The position numbers and the translations under genes were made by a program. From Podarcis vaucheri (lineage: Eukaryota), in the NCBI GenBank assembly GCA_965113315.1, contig OZ220374.1: 64,000 nt of DNA; one strand, 5' to 3'. The notes beneath the pieces were generated by a model, which was given only the letters and a program-made list of their open reading frames with translations, ran no database searches and was not told the DNA's origin. Positions 2,176 through 57,102 of the stretch are shown here, one piece after another (the stretch's first letter is position 1; each line of letters begins with the position of its first letter).

Positions 2176-2939
2176 TAGGCTTTCTAAGATCAATAGTGTT
2201 TGCTCTCCTTAAGTACCAAATGTGCACCCGATCAGGAACGCCTGGAGAAGTAGAGAAGTATCCTTGTTGACTACCCCACAAATATCATGCCAAATCCGCC
2301 AGAAGCTTGCAAAATCATAACTGTTTCTCCCATCTCCACCCCGCTCTAAAACTACTGTAAAATATTTTAATCTGGACTGTCCAAGAGGGGCTTGGAATGA
2401 GCCAGTGGCATTTGTATAATCTGTTGTAGCCTTTGTAATATTGCATTTGAGCAACTAAAATGTAAGCTGTATGTTACATATTACTGCCCCACCTGTCATC
2501 TTTTGGGTGAAGTACACACAGCTTATTATGGGCTTAAGTATCTTTCTGTGGATTAATTATTATTATAATAATTAATGATACTTTCAAAAATGAAACAGAA
2601 TGACACTGGGCTGTTAAGGAAAGGTGTGCCCTCATAATCATCACCCAGGCAGCGTTCCTCACTTTAAGTTGTATTTGTTGTTAAAGAATCATTTGTGATC
2701 ACAGTAAAAGAAACACAGCAAGATTTGTAGCAATTTCCCTTAAAACTGTCTGGGTGTAGGGGAACAGTCCTACAGGTTTGGGATATTTTGCTGAAGGGGG
2801 CGGTGGGAAAGACAGTCTATTTCCAAGTCTACTTTCCAAGAACTTTGCTTGCACACCAGCTAGTATTGCGCTCCGATTAAGAAAAATAAAGGAGGCGTTT
2901 TAAAAGCCCGTCTCTGGTATGCAGTTTGCGGTGATAATT

Positions 2940-5900
2940 AAGCAGAAAAAGAACCAACAACACGGAAGCGATTGGACGCGCGCTGCCATTCTACAAAATC
3001 AAATCTAAGAGCGGAAAAAAAGAACCACCCAAGTGCTGTTGCTCGAAAGGAGCCTAATAACTCCCCAGCCCAGGTCGCGAAGTAGTGCCGCGCAGCGCCA
3101 AAAACGCGCGTGGAAAGCTCCCGCAAGCAAGTGGGGGAAAACTCCTTCTCCCCCACCCATTCTAAGCAAAGTAACAGCCGGCTGCTGCGGTAGGTTTCAA
3201 AGGCGCGCCAGCATGTGCGCTTCTGGTCTGCCCGGCAACACACACACCTTCTTCCATCGCCGTGTGTTGGAACTTTCTGTCTCTCTGCCTGCCTCGCCAC
3301 CCAAGTCTCCGCGATCGGGAAAGGCTGTTCGGCTCCTCGTCCGCCCCGGGCCCGTAGGGAGGAGGCGGTTTTGTTTTGAGCCGGTGGGGGGAGGAGGAAA
3401 AGGATGGAGAACCCGTCCCTTTCTCTCCCATCTCCTCCGAGCTTAAAATATTGATCACCTTTGTTAGATCCCTTTTCGGAAACTGCCCTGCTCGCTCATC
3501 CTCCCTGCCGCCTCCCCCACCCGCACCAGCCCCGCATCTTCCTTTCCCGGGGTTTGAAGTGAGCACCAGCTGACAGCCAAGCATGTGGTGTATAAATATT
3601 GAAATAAACGAGCGGAATGCGGGGGGGGGGGCGAGGGAGGGAGAGAGAAGGGAGGGGGTGATCTACGGAAAGTGGGGGGAAGAGGGAAAGGAGAAGAAGA
3701 TAAAGGGGGACAGAGCAGCCCTTCGTGCGCCTGCTGTTCCTGCGTGGGGCGCTGCTCTCCGGCGGTGGGGTGTGTGCGGGAAGCAGGATTTAGGAAAGGG
3801 GGGAGAGAAAAGAGGTGGTGGAGGAAGGGAAGATAATAGCATTTAAAACAACAACAACAAAACAACAACAACAACTGCACAATCCCAACAACAGTGACTG
3901 ATTAGCTCCTACCCGTCGCACAGGGACTGGGAGGGGATTGTGTGTGTGTCTCACCTGACTTCCTCCTTCCCCGGGGCGGCGAGGGAGGCAGAGAGAGGCA
4001 GGCGCGCACACAGCCAGCCAAGCGAGCCAGCCACTCTTCCTTTCCAAAAGCAGAAGCATTCTCGCCCACCCTCGGGGGAAAAAAGAGGGAGAGAAAGAAA
4101 TAGCCCTGAGGGAAAGCGAGGAGAAGGGGGAACGGCAGGCGGAAGTAGGCAAGGAAGAGAGAGAGAGACAGAAGGGAGAAGTAAATAAAGCAGTCGGCGG
4201 CCAAGCTCCGACCCGCTTCGCCTTTTGCTCCGTGGAACCCGCGGGCAGCTTCTCCCCTCGCGCCAACCCCGAGAGCGGCGGCGGCGGCAGCAGCAGCAGC
4301 GGAACAGCAGCAAGCGGCGGCGGCGGCAGCAGCTTCACCTCGGCTCCTGCACCGACGTGGGCCAGCCTCCGCAAGGGGGAGAGCCAGCGAGCGCAGACGG
4401 CCCCGGCCGAGCCTCTCGCGCCTCCGAAGCTTCTTCGCTCGAGCAGGAGGAGGAGAAGCGGGGAGGAGAGGAAAACAACCACAACAACCACCACAAGAGA
4501 GAGGGGGGGGGGAGAGAAGAGAGACGCGTCTCCGCGGACTGGGCTGAGAACTGCGCGTAAAGCAAGAGCCCCGCGGGTTTTTTGGACACTTCGCTCGCCC
4601 GGCTGCCTGGCGGGAGAGTGCCCAAAGCAGGCGGGCGCCGCCTTCTCGTCGTCGTCGTCGTCGTCTTCCTCCTCGCCAAGCAGTTCAAGAGTGAAGGGGG
4701 GAGGGCGAGTGCTTGTGTGCGTGTGTGTTTGTGTGTCTGCATGTGTCTATATATGCGGTGTCTGTGTGTGTCTGCGCGCGCCCCCTCCTCCTCCACCACC
4801 ACCACGACGTCGTCGTCCTCCTCCTCCTCCTCCTCTCCGCTCGCGCTCCTTCCTTTAAACGCCCACTCCCGATGGGTGAAAAGACAACTTGAAGTTCAGT
4901 GCAATTAACTTCGCCGGCGCCTGGGAAGCTGAAGGTGTCGCCCAGCCTCGCCCGCCCTCTCGCTGCGCTCTCATGAGTGAGTTTCCCGTCTTCCTTCCTT
5001 TTCGCCTCGGCCGCGCGCGCTCGCTCGCTTACAGAAAGCCCAAGTTTTCATTCTAAGGGGGGACTTGGAATTCGGTGTGGGAATGGATTTGGAAAAGCAG
5101 GATTTTGTTGTTCTGGGTGGCTTTTCATTTAACCGCAGCCGAGTTCCTGGTAGGGGAGACGCTCTCCGTCTAAGAATTCCTTTTTACACTCGTCCTGATT
5201 CATCGGGGGGGAGCGAGTGGCTTCCACCTCGCGCGCACGGACACCTGCTTTATTCACACGCGCGCACACACACACATAGGGGCGGGCGGGCGGGCGCGCG
5301 CCTGCCTGCCTGCCTTTTCCGAGTCAAGAAGTTGCTGGCGAGGGTCGCTGGGAAGTTTGCCTCAACTTCTTGAACCCTCGACCCGGAGTTTTGCCTCAGT
5401 TCAGCAGAAGTTTACATTTCTGCGGCCCGGGGATGCCTGCCAGGGGGGATGCTCGAGGGAGCAGCAGGAGGTGGTGGGGAAAGTCAGCCGCGCAGGAGAG
5501 GGGTGTGCGCGCGCGAAAGGGCGGCGGCGCACTCTGCTCCGCCGCCGCCGCCGCCGCGTGGAAGTGAGGGAGTTTTAAAAGGGCTTCGTCCCGAGCTGCT
5601 GCTAGGAGCGGAAGGAGAGCAGGAAGGTGCCGGACCGGGAAGAGGTCAGCTGGAGGTTCGTCTTGGCGGGAAGGGCTAAAGTTCTCGTGAGGGGCGGCGG
5701 CGGCGGGTGGGTGGTGGGTCCACTGGCCTGCCGGTGACCTTTGGAGGCGGAGGCGGCTCCCCACACAGGTGTACTTTCTCTCTCTCCACGTGAGGTCCTC
5801 CTCTTTCCCCTGGCAGAATCCTGCTCTTTTTCTTTTAAAGAACTGGGTGGTCCCTGAAACGGCAACCAAGGAGCCCAAGAGGAAATGTAATTTCATTTTT

Positions 5901-16252: not shown

Positions 16253-16732
16253 CTGCCGCTCTGCCGGTGAGTCTTGGGGAGGACCGCTCCCCCTGCAAGC
16301 CCATTCTCCACCTTGGGCCTGGGGGCGGGCCCCAGACTCCACCTCAGCATATAAGGCCCCAAGGAGGCCTCGGGACATCGCTGCTGCCGCTCTGCCGGTG
16401 AGTCTTGGGGAGGACCGCTCCCCCTGCAAGCCCATTCTCCACCTTGGGCCTGGGAGTGGGCCCCAGACTCCACCTCAGCATATAAGGCCCCAAGGAGGCC
16501 TCGGGACATCGCTGCTGCCGCTCTGCCGGTGAGTCTTGGGGAGGACCGCTCCCCCTGCAAGCCCATTCTCCACCTTGGGCCTGGGAGTGGGCCCCAGACT
16601 CCACCTCAGCATATAAGGCCCCAAGGAGGCCTCGGGACATCGCTGCTGCCGCTCTGCCGGTGAGTCTTGGGGAGGACCGCTCCCCCTGCAAGCCCATTCT
16701 CCACCTTGGGCCTGGGGGCGGGCCCCAGACTC
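16253..16732 (+). repeat. 131-bp tandem monomer array (~3.7 copies) at the LINE 5' end
   Basis: Units start at 16253, 16384, 16515 and 16646 and are near-identical; the ORF track repeats the same peptides with a 131-nt period. Confidence 0.97.
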
Positions 16733-17013
16733 ACCACCATCACAACTCGAAGGACACTGCTGCTGTGGCAGCAAATGTTTAACCGTGTTATATATTTTAA
16801 AGTGTTTTAAAAGTGTTTTTATTTTTTACTTTGTTGTACCACCAGAAACGGTGGTTTTTTATCCATGTATTCTTATTTGTTTTGTTTTATTTTGGGTTGG
16901 GGTGGGACGGTTTGTTGAGTGGGGTGGGGATTGGTTTTGCTTTGGTGTAATTGTTTTTTTCTTTTTTTTCTTTTTTTCCTGTTTGTTTGTTTGTTTGCTT
17001 TTATACTTTGTAA

Positions 17014-19986
17014 ATGGAGGCGAGTATGAGGCCTGGGATTCCTACTGTGGAGGGGCGAGGGAGGTATGGCGGTGGGGGCAGATGGCATAGGCGAAGGGGA
17101 TCGAGATATGGATATGCTCGTACCCCTTCCAATCTGCGCCCCATCCCGAGAGACGAGGGTAGGGTGAGAAAGGATTACTCACCTCCGTCACTGGTGTTGT
17201 GCAATGCCAGGTCTATAGGCAACAAAACCGCCACCCTGCGAGACTTCATCATCTCGCAGGGGGTCGACCTGGCTTGTGTGACGGAGACCTGGGTGCGCGA
17301 AGGGGTAACTGTTACCTTACGAGAGATGGCGCCCCCGGGTTTCTCCGTCCTCCACCAGTCACGGACTGTGGGCCGGGGGGGAGGGGTGGCATTATTAATC
17401 CGGGAAGACTGTTCTTTCAGGGCTCTACCACCGCCATCGATCCCCGGCATTGAATGTGTTGGCCTAGTGTGGGGCTCCGAGGTGAGCTTGGCTGTCTGGC
17501 TGGTGTACCGGCCACCTAGCGCACCAGCAGCCACCCTGTCAGGCCTGCTGGAGGCGGTGGCCGGCTGGGCCTTGGAGTTCCCTAACCTATTGGTATTGGG
17601 GGACTTCAACATCCATGCCGATGCCACTCCCTCCTCACAGGCTCTGGACCTGGTGTCTTCCATGGCGACACTAGGGCTCTCCCAGTTTGTTTCGGGCCCC
17701 ACACATCAAGCAGGCCACACGCTGGATCTGATCTTTGGCGTCGGTATAGATGTGATCCTGTCTCCTTCGATGAAGGTGCCATGGTCGGATCACTATGCTC
17801 TGAAAGCCAGGATTGATGTTCCACCCCCACCCTGCTTAGGTGGTGAGCCGATTTGGGCTCGCCCGCGGAGGCTGATGGACCCTGATAGATTCCGTCAAGC
17901 CTTGCGGGACCTTTCTCCCCCTGGCGACTCATTGACTGAGCTTGTTGAGGGCTGGAATACCCAGCTCCTGGCAGCCATCAATGAGATCGCACCTAAGCGC
18001 CCTCTGCGACCCCGCAGAAACCGGGCTCCCTGGTTTACTGAGGAGCTCCGGAAAATGAAGCGGGACCTCAGACGGCTAGAGCGAGTATGGCGGGGTGCCC
18101 GTGACGGAGCCTCAAGAACATCTTATAGGGTTTTTATGAAAACCTACGAGATGGCAGTGAAGGCCGCCAAGAAGTCCTACTTCTCGGCCTCCATTGCATC
18201 CGCTAGCTCTCGCCCGGCACAATTATTTAGTATAATTCGGTCTTTAACGTCCCTCGAAGGACAGCCAAATTTAAATAACAATTCGACACATAGCTGTGAG
18301 GCATTTGCGAGCTTTTTTGCGGAGAAGGTCCTGTCGCTCCGCCATGACCTCCCTGCCAATTTGGATACAATAAAAGAACTGGAGGCCCCTCGACTGTCCT
18401 CGGGTCCAGTATTGGACCACTTTGACCGGATATCCCCAGCCGATGTGGACAGACTCCTCCGAGCTGGAAAGCCCACCACTTGTCCTCTCGACCCGTGCCC
18501 GTCTTGGCTGATTAGAGCATGTCCAGACGAGGTGCGGGCCCCCCTGGGGGATATCATCAATTTGTCCCTTGGCATCGGGACATTCCCAGGGGAACTGAAG
18601 GAGGCAGTGGTGCGTCCGCTCTTAAAGAAAACATCATTAGATCCCTCAGATCTATCCAATTACCGCCCAGTTTCGAATCTTCCATTCCTGGGCAAGGTGA
18701 TTGAGAGAGCGGTTGCTGAACAGCTTGGTAGGTTTCTGGATGAAACATCGGCTCTGGATCCATTCCAGTCCGGCTTCCGCGCTGGTCATGGGACCGAGAC
18801 GGCTCTGGTCGCCCTAACAGATGATCTCCGTAGACAGCTGGATCGAGGCGGGTCGGGGCTGCTGATTCTTCTAGATCTGTCAGCAGCTTTCGACATGGTC
18901 GATCACGAACTTTTGGACCACCGCCTCGCCGACGTGGGGATCCAGGGCGCAGTCCTTCAATGGCTGCGCTCGTTTCTCTCTGGTCGGGGACAGAGGGTGG
19001 CGCTTGGGGGGGAACTGTCATCCCGCCACTCCTTGGTGTGTGGAGTGCCTCAGGGTGCGATTCTCTCCCCGATGCTTTTTAACATCTTTATGCGCCCCCT
19101 CGCCCAGCTTGTCCGGAGTTTTGGGCTGGGCTGCCATCAGTATGCCGATGACACCCAACTCTATCTGTTGATGGATGGCCATCCTGACTCGGCCCCAGAC
19201 ACACTGATCAGATGCTTGGAAGCTGTGGCTGGATGGTTACGTGGGAGCCGGTTGAAGTTAAATCCTTCGAAGACAGAGGTCCTCTGGCTGGGACGGGACG
19301 ATATGGGATTGAGGGGGCAACTCCCATCTCTTGCGGGGGTGCAATTAGTGCCAGCACCGTCCGTTAAGAGTTTGGGTGTAATCTTCGATACCTCCCTCTC
19401 TATGGAGGCGCAGATTGCAGCTATAACAAAGGCGGCATTTTTTCATCTCCGCCAAGCTAAGCAGTTGGCCCCTTACCTCTCTCGCCCTGACCTAGCCACT
19501 GTGATCCACGCGACGGTCACCTCCAGACTGGATTATTGTAACTCGCTCTACGTGGGGCTGCCCTTGAGACTGACCCAGAAACTCCAGCGGGTGCAGAATG
19601 CCGCAGCGAGACTCCTTACGGGGTCTTCGCTGCGGGATCACATTCATCCGGTGCTATACCAGCTGCACTGGCTCCCAGTGGAGTACAGGATCAGGTTTAA
19701 GGTGCTGGTTTTAACCTTTAAAGCCCTATACGGCCTAGGACCCTCGTATCTACGGGACCGCCTCTCCTGGTATGCCCCACAGAGGAACTTACGGTCCTCT
19801 AATAAAAACATCTTGAAGGTCCCAGGCCACAGAGAGGTTAGGCTGGCCTCAACTAGAGCCAGGGCTTTTTCGGCTGCGGCTCCAACCTGGTGGAACGCTC
19901 TGTCACAAGAGACAAGGGCCCTGCAGGACTTGACATCTTTCCGCAGGGCCTGCAAGACAGAGCTGTTCCACCAGGCCTTTGGTTAG
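17014..19986 (+). CDS. L2 LINE APE endonuclease / reverse transcriptase (990 aa)
   Basis: APE motifs CNARS, VTETW, VYRPP, GDFNIH, TLDLIF, SDH. RT motifs NYRPVSNLPFLGK, QSGFR, LDLSAAFD, GVPQG, YADD, KSLGV. L2-type C-terminus RLDYCNSL, HIHPVLYQLHWLP, RAFS..AP..WNAL. Confidence 0.96.
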   Translation: MEASMRPGIPTVEGRGRYGGGGRWHRRRGSRYGYARTPSNLRPIPRDEGRVRKDYSPPSLVLCNARSIGNKTATLRDFIISQGVDLACVTETWVREGVTVTLREMAPPGFSVLHQSRTVGRGGGVALLIREDCSFRALPPPSIPGIECVGLVWGSEVSLAVWLVYRPPSAPAATLSGLLEAVAGWALEFPNLLVLGDFNIHADATPSSQALDLVSSMATLGLSQFVSGPTHQAGHTLDLIFGVGIDVILSPSMKVPWSDHYALKARIDVPPPPCLGGEPIWARPRRLMDPDRFRQALRDLSPPGDSLTELVEGWNTQLLAAINEIAPKRPLRPRRNRAPWFTEELRKMKRDLRRLERVWRGARDGASRTSYRVFMKTYEMAVKAAKKSYFSASIASASSRPAQLFSIIRSLTSLEGQPNLNNNSTHSCEAFASFFAEKVLSLRHDLPANLDTIKELEAPRLSSGPVLDHFDRISPADVDRLLRAGKPTTCPLDPCPSWLIRACPDEVRAPLGDIINLSLGIGTFPGELKEAVVRPLLKKTSLDPSDLSNYRPVSNLPFLGKVIERAVAEQLGRFLDETSALDPFQSGFRAGHGTETALVALTDDLRRQLDRGGSGLLILLDLSAAFDMVDHELLDHRLADVGIQGAVLQWLRSFLSGRGQRVALGGELSSRHSLVCGVPQGAILSPMLFNIFMRPLAQLVRSFGLGCHQYADDTQLYLLMDGHPDSAPDTLIRCLEAVAGWLRGSRLKLNPSKTEVLWLGRDDMGLRGQLPSLAGVQLVPAPSVKSLGVIFDTSLSMEAQIAAITKAAFFHLRQAKQLAPYLSRPDLATVIHATVTSRLDYCNSLYVGLPLRLTQKLQRVQNAAARLLTGSSLRDHIHPVLYQLHWLPVEYRIRFKVLVLTFKALYGLGPSYLRDRLSWYAPQRNLRSSNKNILKVPGHREVRLASTRARAFSAAAPTWWNALSQETRALQDLTSFRRACKTELFHQAFG

Positions 19987-20181
19987 GGCACAGCCTGACT
20001 CCCTCCTTCAGCAATCTTTACAATACTTTAGTTTATGGTTGCCATTAATTTTGATTTTAATTAATTCTTATGATGTTTTTATATTGTTGCACTTTTTTAG
20101 TGTTGTTAGCCGCCCTGAGCCCGGCTTCGGCTGGGGAGGGCGGGATATAAATAAAAATTTATTATTATTATTATTATATAT

Positions 20182-32199: not shown

Positions 32200-32442
32200 G
32201 CCAGCCATATGCTTCCATGCCTCGCAGGCACCTGCTCTCCTTCTCTCCCCACCCCCCGGTCCCCGGCGATCTCGCTGCCCGCACAGATGCCCGCGTTCTT
32301 CCGATTCCTACTTTGTTTCCAAGTCTGTTGAGTGCGCTACCGGAGTTGCCTCTCTTCGCCTTTGGCACCCGATGGGCGTGCGTGCGCCCTTGCCCTCTCC
32401 TGCTTAGGTCATGGCTGCTACCGGGCTGATGTTGGGAAGGCG

Positions 32443-32476
<34 letters not shown>

Positions 32477-33550
32477 ATCGCACGGTTGCAAGACTCTAGT
32501 AGCGCCTGCTGTTCCTTGCTTTCCCTTCCCCGGCTCCTTGATTCCTCTTCCCCTCTCCACAGACTCTCCAACCCCTGCGCGCCCTCTCTCGTTGGGCAAG
32601 GAAGGTGGCCTCCGCTTCTGCCGCCGCTGTTTTTGGCCTGTCCCTCTCGCCAGCCCGTTCCGCACTCCCTAATCGTTTTCGCCTCGTGCAGCTGCCGGCG
32701 GCATCTCTTCCCCTCTCCCAGTTTTCGCATTGCTCCCTGTTATTCTGGGTATTGTGTGTAATAAATGCACAGCCGCCTCACACTAATCAAGCTGATTACA
32801 AATTCTTGCGCGCCCTGTGCCGGAAATCGCACACCCCTCGGCTCTCTCTTTTCCCCTCCCTTTGCCTCTCTCTCTCTTTCTCTCTCCCCCCCCCTCACTT
32901 TTAACCCCCTCCCCCTTCAGCCTTAACCCTCCAGCCCCCTTTTTTAATCCAATTCCCCTTCTAGATGTCCTTTCTCCCTTCCACCCCCCCTCCCGCCCCA
33001 GTTTACTCCACCGCCGCCGCCGCCACCTCCTCCTCCTCCTGCTTGTCTCTGTGTCTCTCTCTCCCTCCCAGGACGCGTCGGATGATCCGGGGCCGCCGGG
33101 GAAGAGCTCCAGGCAGCAGCAGGGAGGCTACGTCCTCCTCCTGTCTTGGGCTGTATACATATTTTTTAAAAAAAGCAAGGGGGGGGAGCCGGTGGCCCTC
33201 GGTGTTATTTTGTATTAAAATGAGGAGGAGGAGAAGGAGGAAGAAGCGGCGGCGGCGGCGGCAGCAGGAGCAGAAAGCAATAGAGGAAGGAGCAGGAGAA
33301 GGGACGGCGGCAGCGGCGGCAGCAGCAGGAGCAGGAGGAGGAGTGATGAGTCAACTAATAATTTAATGGGGACAGAGAGAGAGAGGGAGAGCGCGAGCGA
33401 GCGAGAGGGAGAGCGAGCAAGCAAGCAAGCAACGAACGTCCGGGGGACACACACTCACACACACACACGCAAACACGCAGACACACCACCCTGTAACATC
33501 CAGCAACAACCACCAAACCGGCCTAAATAACCATAATAGCCAGCCGAGGG
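32200..33550 (+). promoter_or_regulatory. CpG island, proximal SATB1 promoter
   Basis: CpG-rich, with pyrimidine tracts, an ETS-like CCGGAAAT (~32820) and an AP-1 site TGAGTCA (33347-33353); lies directly upstream of the 5' UTR exon. Confidence 0.8.
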
Positions 33551-49280: not shown

Positions 49281-49528
49281 GAAAGAAGAAGACTTTGGAT
49301 TTGATATCCCACTTTATCACTACCCAAAGGAGTCTCAAAGCGGCTAACATTCTCCTTTCCCTTCCTCCCCCACAACAAACACTCTGTGAGGTGAGTGAGG
49401 CTGAGAGACTTCAGAGAAGTGTGACTAGCCCAAGGTCACCCAAGAGCTGCATATGGAGGAGCAGGGAAGTGAACCCGGTTCACCAGATTACGAGTCTACC
49501 GCTCTTAACCACTACACCACACTGGCTC
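49281..49528 (-). mobile_element. Squam3-type tRNA/CORE SINE
   Basis: Minus strand starts GAGCCAGTGTGGTGTAGTGGTTAAGAGC (A box), has a CORE-like GTGACCTTGGGC, an L2-like tail and a (CTT)n end. Confidence 0.82.
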
Positions 49529-50258
49529 CCACTCTGAAAGAAGCCCACTCTGAATAGCACTGGATGGGTGCAGAGCCCAAGACTAGGGCAGCCCCCGCTA
49601 GGAGGTGGGAGGAGATCAGCAGTGTCTCCTGCATAGACGCAGCATGGGAGCGGGGCTGACACTGAGGGGGCAGCAGATCTGGCCTCCAAGGAGCGTGCCA
49701 CAACCACTGCTACTGCAGCATGAGCAGTTGGCAATATATGCTTTAGAGTGCATACATTCTGCTGCCTCTGAGGATTCCACTCCCTGAGGCGGTCGCTGGA
49801 CCTTGCCTCATGCATGGGCCGGCCCTGAATAGACCTGAAGTGGATCAGCATCCTCCACTTGCCTTACGTTCTTCCTCTCCCCATGTGGATTGATCCCAGA
49901 GGAAGAAGGCAAGGGAATGGGCAGTAGTGCTGAGGAAAAGGTGTGCCCACTTAAGAAGAGGACTATCTTGCCCAAAGGTCACCCAAAACACAAAACCAAA
50001 ACTTATTCCTGGTTATGGTATATAGGTACTGATTGCCTCAGTCGTCTTCTACATATTACATAATTGGCCTTCAGCTATACTTCACCCCATATAAAATAAT
50101 GTTCAACTTGAAGAGTTCACATGTTGCTGTGTGTGCACACCTACATGTGTTCACAACGCTTCAACAGCATCAGTCATCCTATACCTCAGCAGTTGTAATA
50201 ATGGTAAAAACCAGATTTGTGATTTCAGCTTGAACTCTGGCATAAGTGAATCCTAAAA

Positions 50259-55876: not shown

Positions 55877-57102
55877 TACTTGCTCCTGAAATGTATGGCA
55901 TACAATCATTAGAAAATTCTTCAGGGGTGGGGTTTAAGGGTGGGGCAGAATGTAGGAAAACCATCAAAGTTCCCAGATTCGTGAAGTTTGGAGACTGCCA
56001 TTTCAGCTAGGGAGAATGGGAAATGGAAGAGTCACTTAAGCAAGTGGTTGTGGGGAGAAAACGCATCAGGTGAGAGTCTAGAAAATGAGGATGGGAGAAT
56101 ATTAAGGTCTTTGCTGGCGTGCCAGATTCATTCTGTCCTTTGATCAAATAATCTGATGATGAGTTTATCAGATTTTAATCTAGTTGTACTATTTGTTTCC
56201 CACAACATTTTACTGGAGTGAGTCCATCTCTCACCTAATCTTATTTCTATGCATTGCCTCTATCCTTGCTTTTCTTCTTCTGTTCGCTCTGAATTTTGCA
56301 CTGCCTCACCCCCTTAGTCCTGATACCTTATTGTAATTAAGCCAAAATATTTGTAATAACCACACATTTGACCCTTGCTTCCTCTCTCCTCCCCTTTCGC
56401 TTCTATGTGTCTCTTTTGGATTGTAGGCCACTTGGGATGGGGGGGGGGGATGTTGCATCTGTTCTGAGTAAAGTGTCATGTGCACAGGATTCAAGCTCAG
56501 CCGGTTTTTTTCTCACCTATTTCATCATTTGTATCCTGGCAATGGCCCAGGAACTGAACAGCCTCTCCTGATTCAAAACTCATTAAGAAATAGAACTAAG
56601 TGTAATTGGCATACTGATAGTACCTCACCCTAAAACTCCTAATGACCACTCCCAATGGCTTCATGTTGGTATTAAATAGAAGCAGATATAAGATAGTCCT
56701 CCTGGTTGTTGTTTATCCCATTCCTTTTGTACGCTCCTGATAAAAATCACATATCTGGTCAAATGTTATCCATTCTTATTTGAATAGGTTTTCATGTGTT
56801 GAAAAGCAGGGGAAGTCGCATGAAGATTTTTCCTTTTGCAAACAGTGTTTCATATAGTGCAATTTTTTGCGGGGGGGGGAGAAGGGAGAGAAATGAAGGA
56901 ACATGTAAGTGTTGACCTATTGGAAGTGCATTCCCTTGACACATTCAGAACACTTGCAAAAATAGTGCTGGTTCAGAGCAAGTCTTTTCACAGCTTTCTC
57001 TACCTCCCAGCCCCAAATTGTTCACCTTATTCCTAGCAATAGTTAAGGCCATCATGTTTATGTTGTGAAACACATCTGTGGGTGAAGGATGGCATATAAA
57101 TG

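Follow-up and report, generated by a model that had tools for sequence, protein, structure and literature searches.

The 64,000-nt stretch of Podarcis vaucheri DNA analysed here (contig OZ220374.1 of assembly GCA_965113315.1; hereafter the window) carries a complete L2 LINE and, on the opposite strand, a full-length Squam3-type SINE. The question raised by this arrangement is whether the hairpin at the 3' end of the L2 is also the signal by which the SINE is mobilised. An initial annotation had proposed that the two elements form a candidate LINE‒SINE pair, that the shared cUUCGg stem-loop is the recognition signal of the reverse transcriptase, and that this L2 lineage or a relative drives the SINE. 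The two tails were confirmed to read as quoted there (L2, nt 20104–20148, plus strand; SINE, nt 49349–49304, minus strand) and, judging from their sequences, both are homologous copies of a 3' end that is common to many L2 lineages and to Squam3.

The window L2, assigned here to lineage A, has the single ORF with AP-type endonuclease and reverse transcriptase that characterises ZfL2-2-like L2 LINEs (Table 1). Its 3' UTR spans 117 nt ahead of the hairpin and (TTA)n repeat; a clear target-site duplication was looked for at this copy and none was seen. Six residues of a stretch resembling the conserved tail-binding region (cTBR), namely P339, W340, K349, R353, E356 and W359, have the spacing of P324, W325, R334, R338, E341 and W344 in the available part of the zebrafish ZfL2-2 report (PMC4176376), and by hand matching five are identical and one is an R to K replacement. 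Protein identity of the window ORF is about 50% to lineages B and C of the same genome, and about 25% to elements read as CR1-type. A young LINE with a GATTCTAT-repeat tail, which by that tail we take to be CR1-type, was found at several loci (L073, L084, L099, L103, L123, L136 and L346) and is about 25% identical to the window ORF; L346 has a 972-aa open frame. Elsewhere in the window there are two GC-rich islands (nt ~2900–5900 and 32200–33500) in which triplet runs of alanine/glycine type occur together with sequence resembling promoters or 5' UTRs, which suggests a developmental gene locus, and old, decayed LINE ORF fragments of 32–40% identity (nt 1929–2150 and 56539–56697).

Table 1. Features of the L2 and SINE copies in the window: position (nt), strand and basis of the assignment.
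Feature	Position	Strand	Basis
Complete LINE (L2, lineage A)	16253–20176	+	array, leader, single ORF, 3' UTR, hairpin, (TTA)n
L2 5' UTR array, 3.7 copies of a 131-nt monomer with TATA-like box	16253–16732	+	TRF
T-rich remainder of L2 5' UTR, without ORF1	16733–17013	+	sequence, ORF list
Intact single ORF, 990 aa, AP-type endonuclease and reverse transcriptase	17014–19986	+	PF03372 (aa 64–260), PF00078 (aa 541–790)
cTBR-like stretch, aa 339–361	18028–18096	+	residues matched by hand to ZfL2-2 (PMC4176376, available part)
L2 3' handle including A-rich linker	20104–20157	+	sequence, fold, covariation
L2 handle, 5' flank	20104–20109	+	
L2 handle, outer stem	20110–20116 with 20137–20143	+	
L2 handle, GAG	20117–20119	+	
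L2 handle, inner stem	20120–20125 with 20130–20135	+	
L2 handle, UUCG loop	20126–20129	+	
L2 (TTA)n terminal repeat	20158–20176	+	sequence
Full-length Squam3B SINE, older UUCG-type subfamily	49283–49530	-	head and tail match lacertid Squam3B rows (PMC7983390, supplementary file 1)
SINE 3' handle (outer stem of 7 bp; internal loop GAG × GAU; inner stem with a bulge; UUCG loop altered by CpG decay)	49309–49343	-	
SINE (CTT)n, after linker	49292–49283	-	

The array at the 5' end of the L2 is likely to be a self-renewing tandem promoter. Other copies carry 2.7 to more than 14 monomers (L182–L210), and 17 of 23 independent L2 5' ends lie 24–40 nt past the TATA-like box, in an interval that was picked after seeing the data (binomial p = 4e-11). 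Thirty loci were considered, and 23 ends remain once the window copy, two duplicates, one locus that could not be parsed and three arrays exceeding the reference in length are set aside. These ends fall past the box as a tandem promoter would predict, and each monomer probably launches transcription in the following one. Tandem 5' repeats of a like kind are found in mouse L1 and HeT-A. A GT site resembling a splice donor is also present in each 131-nt monomer; no joint of a 5' UTR spliced from that site was present in four RNA runs, at a local depth below 20. RNA reads, from an organism that may be another species, span the whole L2 and are mostly 90–99% alike. In two runs one strand is in excess over a large part of the 5' half of the ORF, which agrees with sense transcription provided that the libraries were stranded.

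The SINE had been described as Squam3-type, which is correct and can be refined to the lacertid-type Squam3B with a (CTT)n end. Its tRNA-derived head and its body with an 11-nt insertion agree with the Squam3B consensus in a by-eye comparison with the lacertid rows, and the (CTT)n tail, the body of about 238 nt and the tens of thousands of copies also conform to that family. It differs from a near-majority copy (L032) at 8 of 232 sites, two of which are a TCG>TTG change of the loop and a GCG>GTG change of the stem; TTCG and GCGG are present in other Squam3B copies, which bears out the earlier explanation of the TTTG and GTGG changes by CpG decay. Rfam and ARAGORN returned no matches. SINE RNA reads come from both strands and look like passenger transcription, uninformative on Pol III copies. 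In 120 random 10-kb stretches (1.2 Mb), 24 Squam3B tails were counted, plus one false match, corresponding to about 1.3 tails per 64 kb and about 32,000 per genome. At this density a Squam3B tail is expected by chance in a 64-kb stretch with a probability of ~0.7, and its co-occurrence with the L2 carries little meaning.

As had been described, the fold of the L2 tail has an outer stem of 7 bp, a GAG × G internal loop and a 6-bp inner stem closed by UUCG (-26.2 kcal/mol, z = -2.8; 2 of 200 shuffles equally good). The SINE tail forms the same outer stem, lengthened by an eighth pair (G-U), and its 5-bp inner stem contains a bulge (-14.1 kcal/mol, z = -2.15; 7 of 200 shuffles), a z that falls to -0.72 once the CTT tail is included. 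The two C-G to T-A swaps noted earlier between the L2 and SINE stems are real. The inner stems of the two cannot be aligned in sequence, and the terminal repeats differ, (TTA)n in the L2 versus (CTT)n in the SINE. All of 11 representative tails fold into the two-stem form. Covariation was examined on 21 natural, hand-picked copies, in which the outer stem is paired in 95.9% of 147 cells and changes on both sides at three pairs, a number reached by 31 of 500 shuffles. Its covariation score is 0.314, compared with 0.176 when shuffled (0 of 500 reach it) and at most 0.256 in slid registers, and RNAalifold recovers the same outer helix unaided. Because relatedness inflates such scores and independent events are few, this covariation across families is counted as support and not as a formal test. 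The variation is concentrated in the upper pairs: at pairs 5–7 the family majorities are C-G, C-G, U-A in lineage A, C-G, C-G, A-U in lineage B, U-A, U-A, U-A in the older SINE and U-G, U-A, U-A in the young SINE. Across families there is hardly any change in the GAG bulge or in the four lower pairs, a constancy that is partly inherent in the search patterns used; four published Squam3A consensus rows, in the available part of that source, read GGG or GGA at this position (PMC7983390). What LINE and SINE have in common at their 3' ends, in sequence and in covarying structure, is the outer stem, GAG and the flanks.

The tip loop varies, and what stays constant in the handle is the lower stem together with the GAG internal loop and the flanks. 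Lineage A copies carry UUCG, CUUG, UCUG or UUUG, lineage B mostly GAAA but also GCAA, GAAG and GAGG, family C UNCG, and Squam3B UUCG, UUAG, UAAA, GAAG or UAAG. The loops thus fall into classes by lineage, Y-N-N-G in A, C and older Squam3B and purine-rich in B and young Squam3B, and intermediate Squam3B copies with UAAG and GAAA loops exist. Among the 24 random Squam3B tails an intact UUCG was found in none and at most five are derivable from it; eight have UUAG-like loops and 11 have UAAA, GAAG or UAAG. A cognate tip loop and terminal repeat, as in a stringent LINE‒SINE pair, was not found for the window elements, the loop being common to the older SINE subfamily only.

Tail families were gathered through the ORF, independently of any pattern, and through an anchored pattern (101 matches, 2 in a reversed control). 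Lineage A is represented by 13 tails and four of a close relative, and lineage B by 37, about three times as many. The lineage B protein is 51% identical to the window ORF over 954 aa, and its tail has an 8-bp inner stem with a GAAA loop (L344, L242–L260). Beyond lineage A, at least five L2-type tail families have the same stem and GAG bulge. Many L2 lineages of this genome possess the hairpin, which is no mark of the window elements; these do not constitute the special pair that had been supposed. Family C is old (copies about 80% alike, the median of 102 pairs, best 90%), as are the rarer tails of families E, F and G (E copies 79–87% alike); Squam3B copies have a median similarity of 91%. 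Over 23 anchored columns, the UUCG-type SINE is 1–3 changes from E, F and G, four from the window L2 and eight from B. Its outer stem is better matched by some families (E, F) than by A, and its inner hairpin is matched best by C (local score 10, versus 6 for A), so that on sequence it appears to have no one obvious L2 source. The young SINE differs from A at three and from B at seven of these columns, and it resembles A in having a 6-bp inner stem closed by a U-A pair.

Lineages A and B both have ORFs that are open or nearly open, and in both the cTBR residues are at the published spacing; the two proteins are identical at 15 of 23 positions in the cTBR and at 8 of the 25 that follow (hand count). 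Target-site duplications of at least 4 nt were found at 9 of 17 A, 5 of 15 B and 14 of 30 young SINE copies, and short duplications overlap the terminal repeat in about half of the A and young SINE insertions and about a third of those of B. No nick-site motif was seen at the A, B or young SINE insertions. Neither the duplication lengths nor the GC content of the flanks (0.416, 0.432 and 0.440; p = 0.09 and 0.59) separated A from B, and no partner was picked out. Two peculiarities were observed among the L2 copies. L015, a 5'-truncated member of lineage A, has a fold-back inversion in its 5' part that is twin-priming-like, and L187, L196 and L197 (G000:C41) have the same 5' flank and L2 start, and represent one insertion copied by segmental duplication.

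A LINE carrying the linker and (CTT)n end of Squam3B was searched for with three genome-wide patterns, and none was found. A pattern requiring seven non-G bases upstream gave 10 matches, all with unrelated flanks or SINE body. A T-rich upstream part combined with the SINE-type stem gave 85 rows, of which 30 were retrieved; the 21 distinct loci examined included one truncated SINE and three lineage A copies, the remainder being older L2-like tails. With the SINE linker instead of the stem, seven distinct loci were returned, six having the SINE inner hairpin and one being a lineage A copy without CTT repeats. The upstream part would recover 9 of the 14 lineage A copies and 25 of the 46 of lineage B, a sensitivity of about 55–65% per copy. 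Every L2 found differs from the SINE in inner stem, loop and terminal repeat, and since the three patterns yielded no LINE with the SINE end, the driver of Squam3B probably tolerates a tail whose inner stem and terminal repeat are different from those of its own. With no other L2 family with a (CTT)n tail found, the attribution to this L2 lineage or a relative stands.

The relative ages of the elements bear directly on the window copies. All 30 copies compared of the window L2 subfamily are identical over 262 nt (at least 30 identical copies), whereas among the best 40 matches to the UUCG-type SINE there is no identical copy and the closest is at two mismatches. The GAAG-type SINE has seven identical and 33 one-mismatch copies among its best 40, copies of the UAAA type also form identical groups, and lineage B, with one of its subfamilies as the query, has three identical and about 16 one-mismatch copies among the best 40. 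Furthermore, a UAAA-type SINE (L025:612–873; G000:C10, near 109.2817 Mb) lies antisense in ORF2 of a full-length lineage A copy that has no mismatches to the window L2 in 611 + 880 nt (1,491 nt). The same insertion is seen in L347, and the nested SINE is 98.4% identical to a young copy. Its presence in an undiverged host shows that Squam3B was mobile during or after the burst of the window L2 subfamily, in a form without UUCG. Taken together, the identical A copies, the lack of an identical UUCG-type SINE among those compared and the nested insertion show that the window L2 subfamily is younger than the window SINE copy, and hence did not insert it. The UUCG-type SINE ceased amplifying before the L2 burst, and SINEs without UUCG continued. 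Overlap in activity is seen for the Squam3B family, through the nested copy, but not for the two subfamilies of the window; lineage B overlaps as well. Of the proposed drive by this lineage or a relative, the homologous tails, covarying stem, cTBR motif and mobility of Squam3B during L2 insertions speak in favour, and it is the window L2 subfamily that is removed as the source of the window SINE.

By analogy with the L2s of eel and zebrafish, the L2 region between endonuclease and reverse transcriptase would bind the hairpin, and reverse transcription would be primed at the terminal triplet repeat, yielding duplications of 4–6 nt. As to the part that is bound, our preferred reading, which we put forward tentatively as a good possibility, is that the L2 protein grips the lower stem (CCGC/GCGG), the GAG internal loop and the flanks rather than the tip loop. 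Because such a handle would be tolerant of loop changes, Squam3B could likely make use of any L2 that is active at the time. Earlier members of lineage A, with the UUCG loop and same flanks, are the likely candidates that may have inserted the window SINE copy, and the present, younger subfamily would likely help to drive today's UAAA- and GAAG-type SINEs. Several points stand against a grip of this kind. In the available part of the zebrafish study, the tip loop is the specificity element of ZfL2-1 and ZfL2-2, and loop swaps abolish jumping (PMC4176376); in the present data, the loop class is bound to the lineage, the region after the cTBR is variable, and in the internal loop of the young SINE the 3' side now reads GA, as in lineage B, the age profile of this SINE being nearer to that of B than to A's latest burst. 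Specificity for a loop class as in fish, combined with a switch of partner, is the main alternative, possible though rather doubtful. Under it, UUCG/UUAG Squam3B was driven by A (or earlier by C), and the young UAAA/GAAG types have adapted to B. The young SINE lacks the inner bulge, has GA in place of GAU and has purine-rich loops, all B-like features; the intermediate UAAG and GAAA copies, the unlikeness of A and B in the variable tail-binding region, the greater number of B tails (37 versus 13), the similar age of B and the young SINE, and the fish precedent all point the same way. However, the young SINE still resembles A in its flanks, its closing pair and the length of its inner stem (three versus seven mismatches), UAAA and GAAG are not the main loop of B, and UUCG-type SINEs that do not amplify while A peaks must be accounted for. 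The data do not separate a loop-tolerant grip from a change of partner.

Two other explanations fare worse. That the shared cUUCGg hairpin is the signal, with the window L2 subfamily driving the window type of SINE, would explain why flanks and loop are identical in the pairwise comparison and why UUCG and the same 3' flank are retained in older A copies (83–96% protein identity), but it is improbable given that the window SINE has diverged and the L2 subfamily has not, that no young UUCG-type SINE stands among the best 40 matches, that intact UUCG is absent from the 24 random tails, and that the SINE inner hairpin is nearer to family C; the loop varies inside both families. It is similarly improbable that lineage A is only a relative and that the window SINE copy had its partner in a different L2 family, of the C, E or F type, that has died out or escaped detection. 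The closer outer stems of E, F and G and the matching inner hairpin of C favour such a partner, yet C and E are older than Squam3B and no C, E or F tail has the end of the SINE. 

A SINE that changes drivers, or is free of any single one, is a further reading: young Squam3B may, although we consider it somewhat unlikely, have remade its tip and internal loop toward lineage B while keeping A flanks. If so, lizard L2s would read the GAG internal loop, unlike the tip-loop reading of fish, and the trio of A, B and Squam3B would allow a direct test of how a SINE comes to choose one LINE or exchange it for another.

The pairing of LINEs with SINEs is textbook knowledge, and the link between Squam3 and L2 is already published: Vassetzky et al. 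2021 (PMC7983390) state that Squam3 has a 3' end similar to that of the L2 LINEs found in Anolis and in a lacertid. The present material is useful in that it provides an intact, very recently amplified single-ORF amniote L2 together with a second young L2 (51% protein identity) with another loop. With SINE subfamilies bearing old and new loops, the two L2s permit a clean test of which part of the hairpin is read by an amniote L2 protein, a reading that, in the available parts of the literature cited here, has been measured only for fish L2s; the same material bears on how SINEs switch partners. The head, body, tail and (CTT)n end of the window SINE match the lacertid rows of Squam3B (PMC7983390), and the available part of that source gives no secondary structure, no detail on the partner family (data not shown) and no UAAA/GAAG subfamily. 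The zebrafish ZfL2-2 (Hayashi et al. 2014, PMC4176376) likewise has a single ORF, repeat units in the 5' UTR, a two-stem 3' hairpin and the same cTBR spacing. Its tip loop confers specificity, whereas the lizard L2s exchange theirs within lineages and keep the internal loop more constant. UnaL2 and UnaSINE1/2 of the eel (Nomura et al. 2006, PMC1636434) also share a stem-loop, an internal loop and a short terminal repeat, and in the portion of that work available the internal loop is needed for jumping and the SINE is mobilised in trans. What the eel LINE and SINE have in common is some 60 bp of conserved tail, with GGAUA as the loop, whereas in the lizard the inner stem, loop and terminal repeat differ between the two.
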